In this document: one piece after another, positions 18 through 32,843 of the stretch | How positions within the stretch are numbered: the stretch's first letter is position 1 | How the letters are laid out: each line of letters opens with the position of its first letter | Source: a virus | Length of the DNA: 64,000 nt | IMG/VR virus record: IMGVR_UViG_3300045988_117195 | Location: 31,385-95,384 of that record | Direction: 5' to 3' (one strand) | Position numbers and translations under genes: made by a program | The notes under the pieces: model-generated | What the model was told of the DNA's origin: nothing | What the model saw: only the letters and a program-made list of their open reading frames with translations | Database searches by the model: none

Positions 18-3000
18 ATGGAAGATCTTTTGTCTGCACCTATAGAGGTTAAAGAACGTATCGTAGATAAGATATATACAGGTAATCAAGATCTTTTATC
101 TCCAAGGGAGAAGGAGATATATGAAAAGTATAAACAGGATATTGATGATTATATATCAAATCTTGGTGATAGTCCGGCTAAGATGATAAAAGATTTATCA
201 GATAAAGTTAGGAGGCTTACTGAACCTCGATCTGTGTATGAGGATAATAAAGCTATTATTGATATGGCTAAATCCAATTTAGAACCAGATCAAAGGAAGG
301 AACTTGATGATGCTATTTCTTCGTATGTTGATATAATGAACAGACGGGATAAAGGGGAGAAGGTTGACGAAGATAAGCTTGCTGATTCGGTATTTACCAT
401 AGAAGATCTTGGTCAGGTTGGAAACATCACAGATCTCCTTCCTTATATTGAACAAAACAGGATTATTGACAAAGGTCGTATTTCCGAATCTACGTTAAGT
501 AATTTTGGGGAGGATGATGCTAATATAGATTCTCTTGTAAATGAATTAGACGAATCTGATAATACACCTGGAACTAACATAGATAGTGCCCAGAATCCAG
601 AGATGTTGATGGTAAGAAGAATCTCCAATGATGGCAACGAAAGGTATGAAATTGCGGGTCTTAGAGCTGATAAATTTATATCTTCTATAAAATCATTGGT
701 TCCTATTCAAATAAGCTCTGAAACGAACGCTAATGGGACTAAAAGGTATTTCCTTAACATAGGTGGAGAAACAGCTACCGTGATAGAACGTCCTTATCAT
801 GCGAGATGGTCTATAGACAAAGAATCGGCTCGTGTTCTCAACCGTTACACAGATGTGTCTATTCAGGACGTGGGTAATTCATATTCTTTGGTTTATAAGC
901 GTCTTGATTCAGATGAGTTGGTTCCGTACAGAACAGGTGTTGGGTTCGGAGAGAATGAGGTAGATAAAATAGATCAGGAAGCATTATCTTCTTTGAAGAA
1001 AGGAGATAAGGTTAATCTCGAAATAGATGCAAATGATACCTATAATCAGTCTCTTTTTACCGAATACAATGACGCTGTTCAGTCCGGCGATAAAAAAAGA
1101 ATAGAATCTGCTGAGAATAAACTGGTGTCCAATATGGTTATCAAGGTCATGAGTGGGAACAGATTCGTTTCTGTTGTAAAAGCTGATACAGGAGGCATAG
1201 ATGGTATAAGTAAAATAAGAAGAACGGCTTTTAACAACTGGAAGAAGGACGCCGGCCGGTCGGCTACCATCGGCGTCGGCACGCATGTTGTTGCCCAGAC
1301 CCTTCCTGGAAGACCGGTGTTTAACATGAGAGTAAACGGTCAAGGATATGGTCAGGTAGAAAATCTACCTATTACCGAAAAAGGAGCTGAAAAAGTATCT
1401 GATGTGGGGTATGTCTTAAATGGCAAAGTCGTGCTTAAGAACGGTTCTAAATACACAGGATTCCCATTTGCTTATTCTATATTAAACGATAAGAAAAACA
1501 ATTACAAAAATGTAAGAGTTCCGGTAGTCGTTATCAAGGGTAAGAATGGTCTTAATTATCTTTTCCCGGTTAGTCTACGTTCTGTGGAATCAGAGGAAGG
1601 AAAGAAATGGATGTCTTTTATAGATATGCTGCTTGAATCTGGTGATTCTGAATTGCTACAGATGGGTCAAGATGACATACAAGATCTTAATGCGTATCTG
1701 ACCAAGTTAGGTCTTGATCCAGCTTCGTATCAAGTATCGTATTTGAATCCTATTTCAGGTCTTAGAAAAGCTCGTGAGGCTATAGAAAAATTATCTACAG
1801 TTCCTGATGTTGTTAAGTGGGTAGAAGATGAAAGTAGGAGTGTGAAAGACATTGTGACGTCTGAGGTAGAATCTGGAATAGATTTCGAAGGTGAGATGTT
1901 TGTTGCTCCTAAGATCAGGATTCAGTTTGGTAAATCATCTTCCAGACCTAAATCACTTATAGAAGATGATCTCCCTTTCTCCGATGAGGGTAAGACCGTT
2001 ACTTCCAAGGAAGATGTGGATATTTACGAAGAGGAAATGCCAGAGGAAGAGCCTGTCCAGGCGACTCAGCCGACGCCATCAACTCAGCCGGCTCCTGCGG
2101 CACAAGCTGCGCAGTCTTTACCTGGCAAGAAGCGTACCTCCAGGAAAAACTTCTCTCTTATGTTAAACGAAATAGAATCTCATATAGAAAAAGAAGGATT
2201 GCCGCCTTATGCTAATATTTTTGATTTTATAGCAAGGAAGATTGTAGGAGGCGATTTGAGGTTTCTTCGTGATAGAGGTAATCCAAAAAGTCTTAAGGAG
2301 GAAATGGGATTAGAACCTAAAGGAACAGTAGGTGATAAAATATCCACTCCTTCTAAAAAGGGAGGTAAGACCTTAGATGAATACGTTTCTTGGCTTCGTT
2401 CTCAAACGGATCAGGTAGTAGCGGATTATGTTGGGCCAAGATCTGACGAACAAATTATATCAGAGTTGAAAAACTTTTTGAAATATATTAATTTTGTTCC
2501 AAGCAAGGCTTTGAATTATTCTCTTAGAGTCAATGGTATGGATACCCTAAAAGAATATGGCACAAAAGAGGAAGTAGAAAAAATGGAATCTGACATCAAT
2601 AGTTTGGTTTCTGAAGTTTTGCCTACGGTAGATAATCAAACTGTAGAAGATGTTTCTACTGCAATAGAATCAAATAACTTGCCTGCCATATGGGAGCCTA
2701 TGGAAAGCCTTGATATGACAAACGAGGAAAAAATAGAGTTTTTGAATAACGTAGCAGATTTCCTTAGTGGCATTCCAGAGTATGATGCTGTTGTGGAGTC
2801 TATAGAGTCAGAATCAGATAATATTTTAAATAATGGAAAAGAAGGAAGTGCAGAAGGCGGTGCAGTACGCACTGAGGAAGATGGCGATAAAAAGGGAGAT
2901 GGAGAAGGCAAAGGACAATCCAGAACAAATGTCGAAGTTAAAGGAAATGTCGAATTACCTGGATCTCAAGAAGGAAGAGTAGATAACTATAGAAAGAACG

Positions 3001-3758
3001 GAGATAAGTTCTCTGACATTGCTGAAGTTACTTTATGGCTACTTAGAAGGGCTTCCGGCATAACCTCTATTCCGGAAGGAGAAGAGGTTTATGTAGAGGG
3101 AGATGAGGTTAATAGCATTATGACCGATATGGAATCAAGGTACGGGATAGACACCATCAACCACTCGCATACGACTAAGGCTATAAGGGATCTTAACGGC
3201 GTGTCGGGTTATAAAGTAGAATACGGCTTAACCTTTTTGACATACGATCCTTTTATTAGAATATCCAATCCAAGGAAAGAATCTAAGGCTGAGAAAGATG
3301 AGCTTCGTATATCCGAAGAGCCGCTTACTCACATATCAAGGGTAACAACCCCTTATTTCCTGTACGGCGGTGATGAAGCATATACATCTGTTCCGGCTAA
3401 GGTAGAGCCTATACCGGAGAAGATAATGGGTCGTAATGGTATTAAATTTGGTATGAGTGTAACTGAGCTAACCAAATTAGGGTACAAAAAAGCTGGTGGA
3501 AACTGGATATATAAATTCTATATGAACTCAGGTGTGTATGATTTGTATAATATCAGTACCGGTGAAGCGTTTAGGGCGAAACCGGATCTTGGAGTTAAGA
3601 TAAGCTCCAGCGCATTCATCCGCTCTTTATCTCAATCTGGTAGAAAAATACAAAATATGATGAGCAACATGAGCCAGGAAGAGATAGATAGGAATAAGAA
3701 TCTTGTAGAAGGTTCTGATAATTCGGATTCGATAAATGAGTTAAATAAAGAGTGTTGA
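18..3758 (+). CDS. large (1246 aa) probable virion-associated protein, function unknown; frame is open to window start so may be 5'-truncated
   Basis: Long uninterrupted ORF in plus-strand block; Pro/Thr/Gln-rich linker (PTPSTQPAPAAQAAQ); no catalytic motif recognised. Confidence 0.6.
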   Translation: MEDLLSAPIEVKERIVDKIYTGNQDLLSPREKEIYEKYKQDIDDYISNLGDSPAKMIKDLSDKVRRLTEPRSVYEDNKAIIDMAKSNLEPDQRKELDDAISSYVDIMNRRDKGEKVDEDKLADSVFTIEDLGQVGNITDLLPYIEQNRIIDKGRISESTLSNFGEDDANIDSLVNELDESDNTPGTNIDSAQNPEMLMVRRISNDGNERYEIAGLRADKFISSIKSLVPIQISSETNANGTKRYFLNIGGETATVIERPYHARWSIDKESARVLNRYTDVSIQDVGNSYSLVYKRLDSDELVPYRTGVGFGENEVDKIDQEALSSLKKGDKVNLEIDANDTYNQSLFTEYNDAVQSGDKKRIESAENKLVSNMVIKVMSGNRFVSVVKADTGGIDGISKIRRTAFNNWKKDAGRSATIGVGTHVVAQTLPGRPVFNMRVNGQGYGQVENLPITEKGAEKVSDVGYVLNGKVVLKNGSKYTGFPFAYSILNDKKNNYKNVRVPVVVIKGKNGLNYLFPVSLRSVESEEGKKWMSFIDMLLESGDSELLQMGQDDIQDLNAYLTKLGLDPASYQVSYLNPISGLRKAREAIEKLSTVPDVVKWVEDESRSVKDIVTSEVESGIDFEGEMFVAPKIRIQFGKSSSRPKSLIEDDLPFSDEGKTVTSKEDVDIYEEEMPEEEPVQATQPTPSTQPAPAAQAAQSLPGKKRTSRKNFSLMLNEIESHIEKEGLPPYANIFDFIARKIVGGDLRFLRDRGNPKSLKEEMGLEPKGTVGDKISTPSKKGGKTLDEYVSWLRSQTDQVVADYVGPRSDEQIISELKNFLKYINFVPSKALNYSLRVNGMDTLKEYGTKEEVEKMESDINSLVSEVLPTVDNQTVEDVSTAIESNNLPAIWEPMESLDMTNEEKIEFLNNVADFLSGIPEYDAVVESIESESDNILNNGKEGSAEGGAVRTEEDGDKKGDGEGKGQSRTNVEVKGNVELPGSQEGRVDNYRKNGDKFSDIAEVTLWLLRRASGITSIPEGEEVYVEGDEVNSIMTDMESRYGIDTINHSHTTKAIRDLNGVSGYKVEYGLTFLTYDPFIRISNPRKESKAEKDELRISEEPLTHISRVTTPYFLYGGDEAYTSVPAKVEPIPEKIMGRNGIKFGMSVTELTKLGYKKAGGNWIYKFYMNSGVYDLYNISTGEAFRAKPDLGVKISSSAFIRSLSQSGRKIQNMMSNMSQEEIDRNKNLVEGSDNSDSINELNKEC

Positions 3759-3760
3759 GT

Positions 3761-4339
3761 ATGAGAAGGAGATATGAAGATGTTTCAGGTCTTGTTCAGT
3801 ATCAGTTGAAGACCAATCAGCAGGGGAATATAGAGGTTTATGTTGATGACGGGTTTGTTGGAAACGTAAGTGAAGGAGTCTGTAATTGGAAGGATGTTGA
3901 ATACAAGAGTAAGGTTACTATATCTTTGAAAGGAGTCGAGAATAAGGCTAAAACTTCAAGTAAAAGAGTCGGTCCCTATTGTCACATTTATAGCATATTT
4001 GGAGGAAATGAATCTTATCATGAAGGTCCGGATAGTAATATAAAAAAGAGTCCGGTTACCACCTTTATAATGTATTGTTATAAAAATGGGGATATTACAA
4101 CTACCACCACTTATACTAAAAATTTATCTGGAACTCTTCAGATAGGTAAAACACAATTGACTATCAATTACAAACAAAGTAAAAGTCAGTCTTTTTCTGG
4201 TGGTGATAAAGATTATGTAACATCCGTATCTGATTTCCCTTTTGTTACTGGTCCAGGAGATAATAGCGTTGAGTTTGAAGGAGAGGGAAGATTAATAGTT
4301 GAAACAAAGGCTTCGCATTATGAAATAGAAGTTTCATAA
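3761..4339 (+). CDS. hypothetical protein, cassette gene 1 (N-terminus MRRRY; ORF track uses GTG at 3752)
   Basis: ORF with AAGGAG-like SD inside duplicated junction; Thr/Ser-rich. Confidence 0.5.
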   Translation: MRRRYEDVSGLVQYQLKTNQQGNIEVYVDDGFVGNVSEGVCNWKDVEYKSKVTISLKGVENKAKTSSKRVGPYCHIYSIFGGNESYHEGPDSNIKKSPVTTFIMYCYKNGDITTTTTYTKNLSGTLQIGKTQLTINYKQSKSQSFSGGDKDYVTSVSDFPFVTGPGDNSVEFEGEGRLIVETKASHYEIEVS

Positions 4340-4472
4340 TTTCTATTTTTATAGTATTTTGTCTAAAATATTTATCACTATGGGTGTCAAATGTCAGATA
4401 GAAAAATAAGAATCTCGTAGAAGGTTCTGATAATTCGGATTCGATAAATAAGTTAAACAAGGAGTGTTGAGT

Positions 4473-5003
4473 ATGAGAAGGAGATTTTTTAATGCTGCGG
4501 ATAATTTCGTGGGAGGATGTTATAATAAGTTATCTAATGAGGATATAAAAAGGCTTGGAGGAAAAAGATCTTATGTATGTCAGTTTAATAAAATTCATAT
4601 ACATATAGGACCTGTATTAAAAGATAATGATTCCGAAGAAAGTTATATAATGTTTAATAGTGATTGGAATCATGGTGGTTATGAATCTATAGTTTATCAC
4701 CATAGTAATAATGGTATTTTTATATTAGGTGAAAATAAAATTGGTAATATAGAAGATCATATACAGGATCTAACATATTGGTACGAATATGATCCAAACA
4801 TTAATGAAAATTATTGTTATTGTTATTATGAAGCTGATAACAGCGGAAATGCTATTAAGTTGAGCCGTGAGTTTGGTGATGTTTGCACTGTTTTTAATAT
4901 TCCCAGTTTGAAAGTTACTACTCTTCGTGATGGCGGTTTAAGTTTTCCAGAGATTTATATAGAAGGAGTTTGGGATCCGTTATTGTATAAGTCGGTTTTA
5001 TAA
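4473..5003 (+). CDS. hypothetical protein, cassette gene 2 (N-terminus MRRRF; unrelated body)
   Basis: ORF preceded by the duplicated junction with the same SD/start context as cassette gene 1. Confidence 0.5.
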   Translation: MRRRFFNAADNFVGGCYNKLSNEDIKRLGGKRSYVCQFNKIHIHIGPVLKDNDSEESYIMFNSDWNHGGYESIVYHHSNNGIFILGENKIGNIEDHIQDLTYWYEYDPNINENYCYCYYEADNSGNAIKLSREFGDVCTVFNIPSLKVTTLRDGGLSFPEIYIEGVWDPLLYKSVL

Positions 5004-5029
5004 TTAACTTTGCAAAAAAGTTAATCATT

Positions 5030-7288
5030 ATGGGTGTCAAATGTCAGATAGAAAAAAAGGAAAATGAAATAAAACGGGTTAAGGCTCCTAACGGGGAGCC
5101 TTCCGTTCTTTACGAAAGTGCCTTAAAATTATTAGGAAACAGCGAGCGGGCCCTTCAGGTATGGGCTAAGGCTTACACTCCTGGTTTTTTGTCGTATTAC
5201 GGTCATTGGAATAACCCGGCTCCAGGGGAGATGTTTAATACCGATTCCAATGGTGAACCTCTTTTAGAAGACGTGCTGTCGTATATGAAGCGTCAAACTT
5301 ATTTTGCCGATCCTCTAACGGATCAGGATGTTAAGGATGTAAGAGATTTTCTTTTATCTACCTATGGTGTTTATACGGCACCATCATTATCCAACATCAT
5401 TCTTCATTATTTTTATGTAGATGGTAGTTTGATACTGAATGAGCAGAATTTAAGAAGATCAGGCTTGTATAATGAAACAGAGATAAGTAGAATCTTATCT
5501 GATCCTTCTGTTCTTAATGAAGTTTCGACATCCATGAGGAAGTTATTGGATTATTCCAATAACGAACATGATAGGGAAAAAGATAATTATTTTATGTCTG
5601 TTGACTATCAGTATGGTCCTATTGTTTACAAGGAGGGAGTGTTTAACCAATTTGGTAAAAAAGTACCATATAATCCTTCTGAGCTTTATTATGCTATGCG
5701 TAAAACAGTAGCCGGCATAAAAAAATTTTCTGAATTTTCATCTGCTTTTGAATCGTTGAGAAACTCATATCCTGAACTGGTTGAGAAATTTGTTTCTGAT
5801 AAAGAATTTGCCGAATCTATGTTTGATGAGTTTTTATCTACGAATAAGATTCCGGTAATAAACATAGAAGGGGATGATGTGGTAGAAGGCAAGAGAAGAT
5901 CCTTGTCTAAGCTACAAGATCTGTCTTATTACAATCCTGGCAAAATAGAGTTCCTAAGAGCTCGTATATCAGCTTATTTAAATAGGGCTAACGCTGACAC
6001 CGAATCTGATTTAAGAAGCATGATATGGGATATAGAAGAGGCTTGTACGTGGTTTGGCATAGATATAATAGGGGCGTCAGAAACTTATGATGGCACAGAA
6101 GAATCTTTGAATAAGATAGATAATTTGATGCTGGATCTTGATATTTATGTGGCCAGGCACAATGATGTAAATTATGCTCCTACGTTGGCATCTTCTATTG
6201 ATGATGTTCTTGGTGATAGTACAGACTATTATTTTGGATTATTGCCGGAGTATATGGATAATTTGAATATCGTTTATTCTGAATCAAATATAGACCCAGT
6301 AGAAGCATTTGAGAAACATTCATTGCTTAAGGTAGGAGATAATCTATATCAAAGGATCAGCAAAGATGATCTTAACGAGATGTATCAAATATCAACAGTG
6401 TTAGCCAAGCACAACCTAACTCACTTTCCTGCTAAAATATATCCTGAATCTTGTTTTAAGAACGGCGTTTTGGATAAAGAGAAAGTACGGAACGTAGATA
6501 ATAATACGCTCATGGATTCCATTAAAAAATACGTCAGATCGTTCATGGATTCTCAGAACACGGAGGACATGATAATGACCAGGATGGCGTTTGGGCACCC
6601 GGCGGTACTTGATGTTTCTTACGCGGATGTGGATCGGGAATTTAGTCGGTACATGAACAAAAAACAAGATAGCGAAAACCCATTATCCTTATTCGATTTA
6701 TACCAATATTACCTTGACAACAAACTCCATAAAACAAAATTATATGATAATGCCTATAAGTATCTTGACTTCAAATCTGGTCCATCTTTGGGTCTTATTT
6801 CTGATGATCCTGATATTTTGAAATCAATAGAATTATCTTTATCTGGAAAAGACAGGTTGATGTTGTTTGATTATAGCATGACCAGCACCGACCCTTTTTT
6901 ATCAAAATTGTTTTATTTGGATAGGTATGACCCTTCGTATGCCGAGAATGATTTTGAACACTATTTTTACACCAGGCACCCGTATCTGTTAAAAGAAAAA
7001 TCGGGCCCTAATATCGTAGAGCAAGATGGTGTTATAACAGCCGAAGGTATTTATGATAATTTTATAAGAGTAGGTAATAAGATATGGTCTAAAGTAAGCG
7101 AAAGTAGTTCCGGCTCTATCTACCAAAATCTGACAGGGACCGAATCGGAGGTGAAATACGATTCTACCCAGAAGGCTAAGACAGTAGAAACCGATTACGC
7201 TCCATACCAAAACAGATCTGGCTTGACGCAAGATATGACCATAAGCAAGTCTGAATTGGATGATCTTAACAAATTAGAATGCAAATAA
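5030..7288 (+). CDS. hypothetical 752-aa protein (probable structural/virion protein)
   Basis: Long ORF in plus block; no recognisable motif. Confidence 0.6.
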   Translation: MGVKCQIEKKENEIKRVKAPNGEPSVLYESALKLLGNSERALQVWAKAYTPGFLSYYGHWNNPAPGEMFNTDSNGEPLLEDVLSYMKRQTYFADPLTDQDVKDVRDFLLSTYGVYTAPSLSNIILHYFYVDGSLILNEQNLRRSGLYNETEISRILSDPSVLNEVSTSMRKLLDYSNNEHDREKDNYFMSVDYQYGPIVYKEGVFNQFGKKVPYNPSELYYAMRKTVAGIKKFSEFSSAFESLRNSYPELVEKFVSDKEFAESMFDEFLSTNKIPVINIEGDDVVEGKRRSLSKLQDLSYYNPGKIEFLRARISAYLNRANADTESDLRSMIWDIEEACTWFGIDIIGASETYDGTEESLNKIDNLMLDLDIYVARHNDVNYAPTLASSIDDVLGDSTDYYFGLLPEYMDNLNIVYSESNIDPVEAFEKHSLLKVGDNLYQRISKDDLNEMYQISTVLAKHNLTHFPAKIYPESCFKNGVLDKEKVRNVDNNTLMDSIKKYVRSFMDSQNTEDMIMTRMAFGHPAVLDVSYADVDREFSRYMNKKQDSENPLSLFDLYQYYLDNKLHKTKLYDNAYKYLDFKSGPSLGLISDDPDILKSIELSLSGKDRLMLFDYSMTSTDPFLSKLFYLDRYDPSYAENDFEHYFYTRHPYLLKEKSGPNIVEQDGVITAEGIYDNFIRVGNKIWSKVSESSSGSIYQNLTGTESEVKYDSTQKAKTVETDYAPYQNRSGLTQDMTISKSELDDLNKLECK

Positions 7289-7333
7289 TTTTTGTATATA
7301 TATAATATAGTTTTTTCATAGTTATAATTTGGG

Positions 7334-7366
7334 AAGTGAGGCTTGTGAAAGTCTCACTTTTCTTAT
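7334..7366 (+). terminator. rho-independent terminator (11-bp stem with one G.U, GTGA GNRA loop, T-tract)
   Basis: aagtgaggctt-gtga-aagtctcactt then ttcttatat, 45 nt after stop of 752-aa gene. Confidence 0.5.
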
Positions 7367-7786
7367 ATATGCACGTATATCAATAACATACAAGAAAAGT
7401 TAGATTTTCGTTGTTTATGAATTATTTTTATTAAGTTTGCAATATTAGTTTCAGGAAGGGATTATAGAAAATAGGGAAGGTAAGAACAGAACGTAACTAA
7501 TAACGGTAGGAAATGAGAATCAGTACCATCAAACGTAATAACAGCATTCATCTTATGTATAAAAACATTATGAATGATTTAGGTCAATTAAGAACTGTAG
7601 TTTCAAAATCCTATATTTATAATCTGATACGAAATCAAACCGGATTAAGTATCAGAACTATATCCCATGTCTTGAATCACACAAAAGAACAGGATACAGA
7701 TTCTTTGTGAAAAGCGTACATTTTCATACATTTGTGTATTCTTTAGTTTTTAGATTTAAGTTTTTTCATGGTATTAGTTTAGAGAT

Positions 7787-7822
7787 CAGGGCTCGCAGTG
7801 ATGCGGGCCCTGGTTTGATTTA
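7787..7822 (+). terminator. hairpin terminator-like element (11-bp stem, GTGA loop, T-tract) inside 690-bp non-coding region
   Basis: cagggctcgca-gtga-tgcgggccctg followed by gtttgattt. Confidence 0.45.
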
Positions 7823-8035
7823 CAGCGCTTTACCCAAAATGGGAAAAGCGTAAGTTTCTGATTATCAGTTTTTCACCTTAAATGGGGAAAATTAATTATT
7901 GTGTATTATACTTCCGTTTTTGCTGAAAATACTTCTCTTCTATAGGAAATAAACACACCTGTATTCCACCCTGCAATCATGATCTTTGTTACGTGCTTCA
8001 TGCACGTATGTTTAACAATTAAATACTATAAAATT

Positions 8036-31142: not shown

Positions 31143-32843
31143 TTATTTTTTGTCATCTCCTTTTAATTTCTTTAAAGTATCTGCAATCGGAAGCTGATCA
31201 ATGACTCCCAATGCCGGAGCGACGGTCTTGACAACATTGTTAAGGAAATTACCGGTACTGTTCTGACCGCCGTCAAATACCGTGATATTTCCGAGATTAA
31301 TGTGCTCAAATGCTTTAACCTGTTCTCCAGCAATTTCTTTCCACTGATTAACCATCTTGTACTGGATGGCGATCTGAGGATTGGATTCTGCTGCTTCCAC
31401 CATAGCCTTAAATCCGTCGGCTTCTGCCATTAACGACTTTTTCTTACCTTCGGCTTCTGCCTCCAGCTTCATCTGAATAGCTTTTGCCTCTGCCTCAGCT
31501 TTTGCCAAATGTGCTGATGCCTCAGCCTCAGCCCGGCGTTTGATCTTCTCGGCCTCGGCATCAGCTTGCAAGATAGCCTCTTCCTTCTGGGTTTCAGCCG
31601 GCACAATCTTTTCAGCCTTAAGCGCAGCCTGAACTTTCTTAGCCTTAGCTTCTTCCACTTCTTTGTCTGCAAGCTCTTTTGCTGTTTTTACAGCCGCTTC
31701 CGATTTAACTTTTTCTTCTCCGGCCTTCTTTTCTGATTGAGCTTTGATAATCTGCAATTCTGATACTGACACAGCAACCTCCTTCTGGGCATTGTTGTAT
31801 CCTATAGACGCATTTTTCTCAGCCTCAGCCTTCTTAATCTGAGCTTCAGAGTTTTGTATTGCTATAGCTGCTTCCTTGTCAGCTTCAGCCTTGTTCTTTC
31901 CGACTTCTTCCATCCTTTCAGCCTCGGCTTTATTTACTTCAAGTTCTGCCTTAGATCTTACGATCGCCGATTCCTTGTCGGTTAAAGTTTTTGCGATAAC
32001 CGCAGCCCTATCTCTATCTGCTTGAGCTACACCAATCTGTTTTTCTTTATCGGTTAAAGCCAAAGCTATTTCTTTTTCTTTCTTCGTTTCAGCTACTATT
32101 GTTTCCTTTTCTTTTTCAGTACAAGCAATTTGAATCTCTTGTTCTTTTTTGGTATTAGCCACAGCCGTTTCTTTCTCCTTCTGCTGTACAGCAATCTTAA
32201 TAGCCCCCAGCTTCTCCTGTTCTTCGATATTAGCCTGTGCTTCGTTCAGAGCCCTACTTTCAGCCTCCTTACCAAGGTTCATAATATAACCGGCTTCGTC
32301 TCTAATGTCACTGATGTTGATGTTCAGGAGGTAAAGACCTAACTTGTTAAGCTCGTTATCAATGTTCTTTCTTGCCTTATCCAAAAACTCATCCCTGTCA
32401 GAATTAAGTTTTTCGATTGTCATTTCAGCAATAATCAAACGCATCTGACCGTAAACGATGTCCGTAATAAGATTTTCAGTAGATTCGGTATCCATTCCCA
32501 AAAGTCTTTCTGCCGCATTTTGCATGATCTCTGGATTTGTACTGATAGCTACTGTAATAGTCGTAGGAACATCTACTCTAATATTCTGAGATGACAAAGC
32601 ACCGGTAAGCTTGCAATCTATTTGCATAGGCTCCATTGACAAAACATCATAGCTTTGAATAATAGGCAAGACAAATGCCGCTCCACCATGATATAATTTC
32701 GCCGATTTCTTTTCCCCACCTGTCTTACCATAAACGACCAAGACCTGATTAGGCTTACATCTACGATACCTTGATAAGACTCCGATGATTGTCAAAATAA
32801 TCACTACAGCTAAGATAGCTGACACGTACATGATTGTTGTCAT
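31143..32843 (-). CDS. flotillin-like SPFH/band-7 protein (FloT/YuaG family) with N-terminal TM helix and long Ala/Glu/Lys coiled-coil
   Basis: Collinear with B. subtilis FloT: YRRCKPNQVLVVYG, GGAAFVLPIIQ, AGYIMNLGKEAESRALNEA, EA-repeat region, C-terminal NITVFDGG. Confidence 0.85.
   Translation of the reverse strand: MTTIMYVSAILAVVIILTIIGVLSRYRRCKPNQVLVVYGKTGGEKKSAKLYHGGAAFVLPIIQSYDVLSMEPMQIDCKLTGALSSQNIRVDVPTTITVAISTNPEIMQNAAERLLGMDTESTENLITDIVYGQMRLIIAEMTIEKLNSDRDEFLDKARKNIDNELNKLGLYLLNINISDIRDEAGYIMNLGKEAESRALNEAQANIEEQEKLGAIKIAVQQKEKETAVANTKKEQEIQIACTEKEKETIVAETKKEKEIALALTDKEKQIGVAQADRDRAAVIAKTLTDKESAIVRSKAELEVNKAEAERMEEVGKNKAEADKEAAIAIQNSEAQIKKAEAEKNASIGYNNAQKEVAVSVSELQIIKAQSEKKAGEEKVKSEAAVKTAKELADKEVEEAKAKKVQAALKAEKIVPAETQKEEAILQADAEAEKIKRRAEAEASAHLAKAEAEAKAIQMKLEAEAEGKKKSLMAEADGFKAMVEAAESNPQIAIQYKMVNQWKEIAGEQVKAFEHINLGNITVFDGGQNSTGNFLNNVVKTVAPALGVIDQLPIADTLKKLKGDDKK

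Follow-up and report, generated by a model that had tools for sequence, protein, structure and literature searches.

Architecture of the doubled slot

We analysed a 64,000-nucleotide (nt) stretch of viral DNA (positions 31,385 to 95,384 of IMG/VR record IMGVR_UViG_3300045988_117195; hereafter the window), in which two unrelated small genes, A and B, lie in tandem between a giant virion structural gene and a conserved gene for a protein of 752 amino acids (aa), each small gene being framed by the same left and right junction sequences (Table 1). The region is ~90% identical to crAssE-Sib (OR575929), a phage of the human gut that PMC11054128 assigns to the epsilon crAss-like phages, under the proposed genus Epsilonunovirus, and this comparison places the window's phage as an epsilon crAss-like phage and a genus-level relative of crAssE-Sib. 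The slot of crAssE-Sib is single: its structural protein (2,208 aa) is followed by A, whose product is 97% identical to that of the window, and then by the 752-aa gene, with neither B nor a stub. Relative to this arrangement the window holds one additional 712-bp unit.

An initial annotation, made from the sequence alone, had described duplicated gene junctions framing two unrelated small genes, together with a dead nine-codon stub copied from the start of the 752-aa gene. Repeat searches confirmed both features and the reality of a tandem of two slot units. The two copies of the left junction agree at 77 of 81 positions, with exact runs of 11, 33, 7, 2 and 24 nt, and comprise the last 63 coding nt of the structural gene, its TGA stop, a GT spacer and ATGAGAAGGAGAT, which encodes MRRR plus 1 nt. 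The right-junction repeat (4346-4412 and 4996-5062) spans 67 nt at 78% identity and contains a 28-nt exact core (4379-4406 and 5029-5056). These repeats are far above chance expectation, and the same junctions were found in hundreds of related contigs. Every element named in the annotation is present, with the extents of the left repeat, right core and small genes now refined; its 1246-aa gene exists as an open reading frame but represents only the C-terminal portion of a gene of ~2,200 aa, the rest of which lies beyond the left edge of the window. No stop precedes nt 18 in this frame, and the coding sequence (CDS) of the crAssE-Sib homologue is 2,208 aa long (WOZ57301.1, annotated 'structural protein'). 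Neither the structural-gene fragment nor the 752-aa protein had a match in sequence searches of Pfam, PHROGs, NCBIfam, PADLOC and PDB.

Table 1. Features of the doubled slot, in window coordinates.
Feature	Position	Strand	Remarks
Giant virion structural gene, 3' part (1246 codons)	18-3758	+	~2,200 aa in full; left window edge cuts gene
Left junction, copy 1 (81 nt)	3693-3773	+	Structural-gene tail, TGA, GT, ATGAGAAGGAGAT
Cargo gene A (192-aa ORFan)	3761-4339	+	Starts 2 nt past the stop of the structural gene
A-type intergenic	4340-4379	+	Imperfect Bacteroidota-type -7 box TAGTATTTTG at 4352-4361
Dead stub (9 codons)	4380-4409	+	MGVKCQIEK, then TAA; first 27 nt of 752-aa gene; TAA made by the join
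Join J1	4405-4406	+	AA common to stub end and start of left-junction copy 2 (microhomology)
Left junction, copy 2 (81 nt)	4405-4485	+	4 differences from copy 1
Cargo gene B (176-aa ORFan)	4473-5003	+	T6 tract 4485-4490; A5 tract 4547-4551
B-type intergenic	5004-5029	+	-7 box TAACTTTG at 5005-5012, within hairpin 5003-5025
Right junction, functional copy	4996-5062	+	Exact 28-nt core 5029-5056, including ATG of 752-aa gene
Conserved 752-aa gene	5030-7288	+	Right anchor of the slot

Slot content varies among close relatives

A protein-guided scan of IMG/VR returned ~250 relatives, from which 80 loci were analysed. Both junctions and the cargo were mapped in 79 slots; L068, whose left junction escaped detection, was treated as a separate class and brings the total to 80. 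A further IMG/VR scan with the protein of an empty-slot genome gave a nearly identical contig set. Most slots hold B only (48) or A only (21), six hold B then A, three hold A then B (the window, L002 and L009) and two are empty (L061 and L068). Content thus varies between conserved junctions, the two genes of the window not being a fixed pair. The hypervariable slot proposed in the initial annotation is borne out to the extent that empty, A, B, A-B, B-A and insertion sequence (IS)-bearing forms occur, with antirepressors in distant relatives, but close relatives essentially show just two alleles, A or B. IS-like inserts of ~1.2–1.3 kb on the opposite strand lie within B in L024 (nt 353; ~4640-5940), at the end of A in L027 (~4700-5900) and within A in L038 (nt 279; ~4700-5900), and an IS-like insert also interrupts B in L229.

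The A/B state is nearly independent of the single-nucleotide polymorphisms (SNPs) on either side (mean r2 0.01–0.09, maximum 0.21), even less than 250 nt from the junctions. A coupling of cargo type to a flanking-gene variant, such as a chaperone-fibre pairing, was rejected on this absence of linkage. The nearest neighbour genome changes about every 1 kb, indicating mosaic recombination, and the window, L002 and L009 have the A-J1-B cassette (J1 being the join of Table 1) in 100% identical form, their flanks differing by 1–2%. Homologous recombination across the flanks that they have in common moves A and B freely from genome to genome.

A word-indexed search of 5.8 billion proteins found one A protein cluster with 6,566 members, and the phage is therefore common. 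For host assignment we searched a species-representative bacterial genome collection, in which no relatives were found.

Two join sequences recur in independent contigs

We searched for tandems with a gapped pattern in which the start of the 752-aa gene is followed within ~60 nt by the structural-gene tail. This matched 13 IMG/VR contigs and nine contigs of a metagenome collection, and the A-guided IMG/VR scan identified 15 tandems among 67 A-containing loci. All tandems in three public collections, counting more than 20 independent contigs, use one or the other of two join sequences (a slash marks the join). J1, ...CAGATAGAAAAA/TAAGAATCTCG..., is found in A-then-B genomes including the window and reads GAAAAA/TAAGAATCTCG, with AA shared by the partners; J2, ...CAGATAGAAAAA/TTCGATAAATG..., is found in B-then-A genomes and reads GAAAAA/TTCGATAAATG, with a single A shared. 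At least 10 contigs carry J1 and at least 12 carry J2; these contigs stem from many studies and several assemblers, and they differ from one another in SNPs and tract lengths. The left junction retained before the ATG measures 68 nt at one join versus 36 nt at the other.

Given that flanks common to A and B can confuse assemblers, a mixed A-type and B-type population might be mis-assembled into one contig that appears to carry both genes. Such an artefact is effectively excluded, because the joins recur across studies, are not present in single-slot genomes and have only 1–2 nt in common between their partners; the window's join (...GATAGAAAAA/TAAGAATCTCG...) is absent from both parents, whose overlap at the join is 2 nt. 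An independent database record (P0022) describes an in-frame fusion, B(1-63)::A(141-192), which is the product expected of a deletion within a B-A tandem and further argues against mis-assembly. The worry that accompanied the initial annotation, that its repeats might be assembly artefacts, collapsed or expanded in the reads, can be set aside.

One genome, L307, has the order A-J2-B. Since all other genomes with J2 are ordered B-J2-A, ordinary homologous recombination can exchange the cargo to the left or right of a join that itself stays in place.

Shared left and right sequences around each of the two genes are also what a site-specific cassette system, integron-like or recombinase-driven, would produce if the repeated junctions served as attachment sites. 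The repeats, however, are merely copies of the flanking coding sequences, the unit boundaries lack attC-like inverted repeats, and no recombinase is annotated beside the slot in the window, crAssE-Sib or the relatives. Where an integron-like cassette array would have an adjacent integrase, the slot is bordered by a structural gene on one side and the 752-aa gene on the other. The unequal left-junction lengths at the two joins are likewise unexpected of a site-specific reaction, and we consider a system of this kind highly improbable.

Two unrelated genes under constraint and recurrently lost

BLASTP found no relation between A and B. The idea that they are diverged homologues was rejected on profile-profile comparison with hhalign, which gave a probability of 1.4% and aligned only the MRRR start. 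Both are strict ORFans whose matches in the word-indexed search are confined to clusters of the same lineage, and no paralogue of either was found elsewhere in the window. Residues 88–128 of B weakly resemble the boundary between MucBP repeats of an adhesin from a Gram-positive bacterium (P0108; E = 5.5e-4, summed over six repeats). We treated this match as noise because the Pfam MucBP model matches no member of the B family even at E ≤ 10.

Both genes are under constraint. The ratio of nonsynonymous to synonymous substitution rates (dN/dS) is 0.24 for A, 0.20 for B and 0.15 for the 752-aa gene, with synonymous diversities of 0.09, 0.15 and 0.10, respectively. A and B are thus genuine genes under purifying selection, and, their synonymous diversity being comparable with that of the 752-aa gene, they are as old as the surrounding core.

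Broken copies are nevertheless frequent, accounting for ~16 of 65 distinct B sequences and ~9 of 60 distinct A sequences. In B the lesions include changes of the T6 tract at codons 5–6 to T7 or T5 and of the A5 tract at about codon 28 to A6; in A, recurrent +1 frameshifts in relatives extend an A6 tract (4042-4047 in the window) to A7. Nonsense mutations, deletions and IS insertions affect both genes. Among distinct B sequences the tract at codons 5–6 is T6 in 52, T7 in five, T5 in two and T9 in two. These lesions are not sequencing noise, because the 752-aa gene, four times longer and itself containing an A7 run, is intact in 78 of 79 of the same contigs. Since the frameshifts, nonsense mutations, deletions and IS disruptions occur within otherwise intact metagenomic genomes, and empty slots exist as well, A and B appear to be non-essential and dispensable for the phage.

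The concentration of lesions at homopolymers allows the slot to be viewed as a contingency (bet-hedging) locus, whose repeats and homopolymer tracts would exist so that A and B could be turned on, turned off or excised at high frequency within the population. The 5' tract of B is indeed T5, T6, T7 or T9 among otherwise close genomes, and the A5 tract of B and the A6 tract of A are recurrent +1 sites while in those contigs no shift ever affects the A7 run of the 752-aa gene. Tracts of 5–6 nt are, however, short for programmed slippage, and the pattern fits ordinary loss of a dispensable gene at its most mutable sites equally well, which leaves programmed switching distinctly unlikely.

This combination of constraint on intact copies, long coexistence with free reassortment, empty alleles and repeated loss is characteristic of accessory genes that are useful only under certain conditions. 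Our best guess, drawn from this population pattern, is that A and B are host-interaction or counter-defence proteins of conditional use, made late with the virion genes. The initial annotation had suggested injected or anti-defence cargo, a suggestion for which the searches brought no direct evidence: A and B are without family, structure or defence-library match, and in library searches we found no helix-turn-helix gene within the slot, no link to an aca-type regulator and no known anti-defence homologue.

Both families also include many in-frame internal-deletion variants (P0007-P0016 for A; P0029 and P0036-P0051 for B), which retain invariant stretches of ~45 residues at the N terminus and the C terminus.

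The slot in the wider family and its promoter-like elements

We read the context of 752-aa homologues at decreasing identity. At 76% B is split by a different TnpB insertion, and the left junction is nearly identical to that of the window; at 69% the slot is empty (26 nt); at 54% several other genes lie upstream; and at 47% an antirepressor (KilA-N/ANT or Bro-N/ANT) stands between the giant gene and the 752-aa homologue. In MT839099, a 30% relative, homology of the upstream gene to the structural gene was not established, and this genome served as no more than a weak hint. L230 and L231 belong to a sister lineage with 69% identity in the 752-aa protein, and both have an empty slot. A protein cluster at this level of identity (P0074) has 1,694 members; the sister lineage thus seems to be abundant in public data and, its sampled slots being empty, to need no slot cargo for its ecological success.

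The motif TAnnTTTG, the -7 box of Bacteroidota promoters, lies 18–25 nt upstream of the ATG of the 752-aa gene in every lineage, including those with empty slots. This conservation indicates that cargo is inserted between the stop of the structural gene and the promoter-like element of the next gene. The first cargo gene, whose ATG is 2 nt past the upstream stop, appears to have no promoter of its own, the TAnnTTTG belonging to the downstream gene. In the tandem this element is duplicated ahead of the second cargo gene, and the retained structural-gene tail places AAGGAG 8 nt upstream of the ATG of B. Expression of B may plausibly be driven by the copied promoter-like region, which lies ahead of the stub, together with this AAGGAG.

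The B-type intergenic hairpin has a 9-bp, A/U-rich stem (-6.3 kcal/mol, z = -5.6). A conserved RNA hairpin as a general feature of the intergenic region was rejected, the signal being significant in the B type only, and neither sigma-70-type promoters nor terminators are enriched in the slot.

A TnpB insertion sequence at the right junction in some relatives

In nine B genomes a 1.4-kb IS lies exactly before the ATG of the 752-aa gene, and it occupies this position in ~12% of relatives. It is a TnpB-only element, encoding a 410-aa TnpB with matches to PF01385 (2.7e-20) and PF07282 (8e-13), that is, OrfB_IS605 and Cas12f1-like TNB domains. Copies at the slot junction are carried by L004, L010, L077 and others (at ~5610-6000), with further sites in L096-L148; a deletion remnant, of 251 bp in L080, is found in one more genome. 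In Epsilonunovirus contigs the IS has at least 12 distinct sites, always after ...TAT, of which the slot junction is the commonest (~20 of 53 copies). Its right end (...CATAACAT) supplies an AT that rebuilds the ATG of the downstream gene, and two sequence subtypes of the left end occur. The vacant slot site reads TAT/GGGTGTCAAATG..., or over a longer stretch CACTAT/GGGTGTCAAATGTCAGATAGAAAAAAAGG, and the predicted guide RNA of the slot copy would match GGGTGTCAAATGTCAG..., the first 16–20 nt of the 752-aa gene in IS-free genomes. The TnpB of ISDra2 cuts 15 bp and 20–21 bp from its transposon-adjacent motif (PMC8612924); TnpB is described as a homing nuclease acting on vacant sites (PMC10690162), and phage homing endonuclease genes sit at exchange boundaries (PMC10448857).

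An element placed exactly on a recombination boundary suggests that the right-junction breakpoint might be a programmed, one-ended TnpB break in IS-free genomes, whose out-of-register repair from the other genome of a mixed infection would make tandems and promote A/B exchange. The IS encodes TnpB domains and targets the slot junction most often, and J1 and J2, which differ in left breakpoint and left haplotype, both have stubs that end at nt 25–27, 1–2 nt apart at most, near the cuts at about nt 17–23 that the analogy with ISDra2 predicts. IS-positive B-type genomes mostly have a chimeric intergenic region, B-type on the left and A-type on the right, and at least two different microhomology joins lie just left of the IS, as expected from repair with one-sided homology. 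The proposal also fits the known homing role of TnpB (PMC10690162) and the position of nuclease genes at phage exchange boundaries (PMC10448857). The predicted cut nevertheless falls 2–6 nt short of the stub end; the breakpoint is within an A7 run, itself prone to slippage or stalling, and the A-run alone could explain the hotspot; the IS is missing from the window; the coincidence concerns no more than two types of join; and J2 might, in principle, have arisen from J1 by deletion. We therefore regard a TnpB-made break as improbable. If it did occur, an RNA-guided transposon nuclease would drive accessory-gene shuffling in a crAss-like phage, and the slot would be a tractable case of nuclease homing that shapes phage gene content.

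The right-junction variant GAAAAGAAGG has a G at nt 27 of the 752-aa gene (window 5056), which is the stub-end position. It is found in five of 10 IS-positive versus seven of 69 IS-free genomes and also in the 69–76% relatives, and its enrichment with the IS is linkage only.

Origin of the form with both genes

We put the probability at about three in four that the locus is an accessory-gene hotspot with two alternative alleles, and that the window carries a rare form with both, made by out-of-register recombination. The hotspot would lie between the stop codon of the structural gene and the promoter-like element and ATG of the 752-aa gene. During co-infection, or wherever mixed genomes replicate, an A-type genome may meet a B-type genome; a DNA end or nascent strand of the former, ending in the A-run 25–27 nt into its 752-aa gene, would join the latter out of register, 68 nt before the start codon of B. 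The join may form through microhomology of 1–3 nt, or through a slipped 9-nt match (AGATAGAAA) in the A-run. The slipped pairing is possible because some B-type genomes have a left-junction variant, ...AGATAGAAATAAGAATCTCG, with these 9 nt in common with the right junction. The product would be the 712-bp extra unit, consisting of the dead stub, a second structural-gene tail and B. Its direct repeats (81 nt and ~30 nt) would make the arrangement metastable, and recombination between them would restore A-only or B-only genomes or swap the cargo.

The haplotypes are consistent with a meeting of two genomes. The left-junction haplotype of copy 2 is confined to J1 tandems, in 20 of 20 occurrences, and its divergence from copy 1 (4 of 81 positions, ~5%) is about that seen between genomes. 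An A-only genome, L065, carries the exact A-type intergenic haplotype of the window. No A-A or B-B tandem occurs among more than 20 tandem contigs. The simplest history would thus be a single out-of-register crossover or template switch between A-type and B-type genomes.

The initial annotation had proposed the other order of events, tandem duplication followed by cargo replacement. A genome would first have doubled its own slot unit, giving A-A or B-B; the other allele, brought in from another genome by homologous recombination, would later have taken the place of one copy. The second of these steps does occur, since L307 and the other J2 genomes differ in cargo around a fixed join, and the pervasive mosaic recombination would ease it. 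The first step, in contrast, has left no A-A or B-B intermediate in the tandem contigs, and the copy-2 haplotype is distinct, differing from copy 1 by about as much as genomes differ from one another. One inter-genomic crossover is more parsimonious and explains the data equally well or better, so that duplication first seems to us rather unlikely, if the strongest of the competing accounts.

Several observations weigh against out-of-register recombination at an accessory-gene hotspot. Among the sampled genomes there is no B-only parent with the left-junction haplotype of copy 2. The J1 and J2 stubs end at the same nucleotide, which a random illegitimate event does not predict. The promoter-like element upstream of the second gene is imperfect in the window's first copy (TAGTATTTTG), where most A-type relatives have a perfect TAnnTTTG. 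For the accessory role of the cargo, neither A nor B has a match in Pfam, PHROGs, NCBIfam, PADLOC or PDB; AlphaFold2 models from shallow family alignments were unusable, with predicted local distance difference test (pLDDT) scores of 35 for A and 30 for B; and an exhaustive profile search with B over 1.84 billion representatives returned its own lineage, as one full-length cluster and fragments, plus one marginal outside match.

Comparison with known systems

Phage moron hotspots, among them those of the lambdoid morons and the anti-CRISPR slot of Mu-like Pseudomonas phages, lie between conserved structural genes. The slot resembles them in its conserved flanking genes, variable small ORFan cargo, empty alleles, dispensable cargo, promoter-like element at the slot edge and exchange by homologous recombination through the flanks. 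It differs in that the close population has only two cargo alleles, that any function of its cargo, anti-defence included, is conjectural, and that the first cargo gene appears to be coupled to the structural gene rather than to form an autonomous promoter-gene-terminator unit. As in idiomorph-type dimorphisms, A and B are unrelated sequences at the same position with core-deep diversity and no linkage to their flanks; here, by contrast, a genome can have both alleles or neither, and frequent knock-outs show that neither is required.

The head-to-tail units, novel join with 1–3 nt of microhomology, truncated stub and single-copy parental forms are those of a tandem segmental duplication by unequal or microhomology-mediated recombination (template switching). 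Unlike in a plain duplication, the two joins share one breakpoint and the two units carry different cargo, which indicates an event between different genomes or one followed by replacement. A further likeness is with the nuclease-associated phage boundaries described in PMC10448857, PMC8612924 and PMC10690162, given that a subset of genomes has TnpB at the right edge of the slot with chimeric flanks adjoining; in the present case cleavage is a prediction, the predicted cut is a few nt off the breakpoint, and the window is without the element.

The doubled slot alone is an ordinary product of unequal recombination. Together with its relatives, which amount to hundreds of genomes, it offers a well-resolved natural case in which two optional genes stay in circulation within an abundant gut phage lineage that is uncultured. 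The pattern of A and B, which are old, constrained, repeatedly lost and occasionally combined, marks them as good candidates for host-interaction or counter-defence functions.

Neighbouring variation

Two stretches of the structural gene, at window ~2900-3550 and ~1200-1700 as mapped approximately from alignment columns, are far more polymorphic among relatives than the rest; nearly all of their alignment columns are informative, a sign that the gene itself may include mosaic or divergent allelic segments. Within the 752-aa CDS, ~50 nt from its start (window 5081-5102), a G+C-rich stem-loop of 9 bp is followed by a T-rich tail (AAGGCTCC TAAC GGGGAGCCTT CCGTTCTTTA) and is the sole terminator-like match in the region.

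A second variable slot lies directly downstream of the 752-aa gene (window 7289-7978; L001 7345-8705; L230 6968-7852; L232 7007-7639; L233 6902-7816). It contains a Bro-N/ANT antirepressor in crAssE-Sib, L230 and L233, which is absent from the window and L231, and in L232 a T5orf172/MUG113 nuclease-like gene takes the place of the antirepressor.

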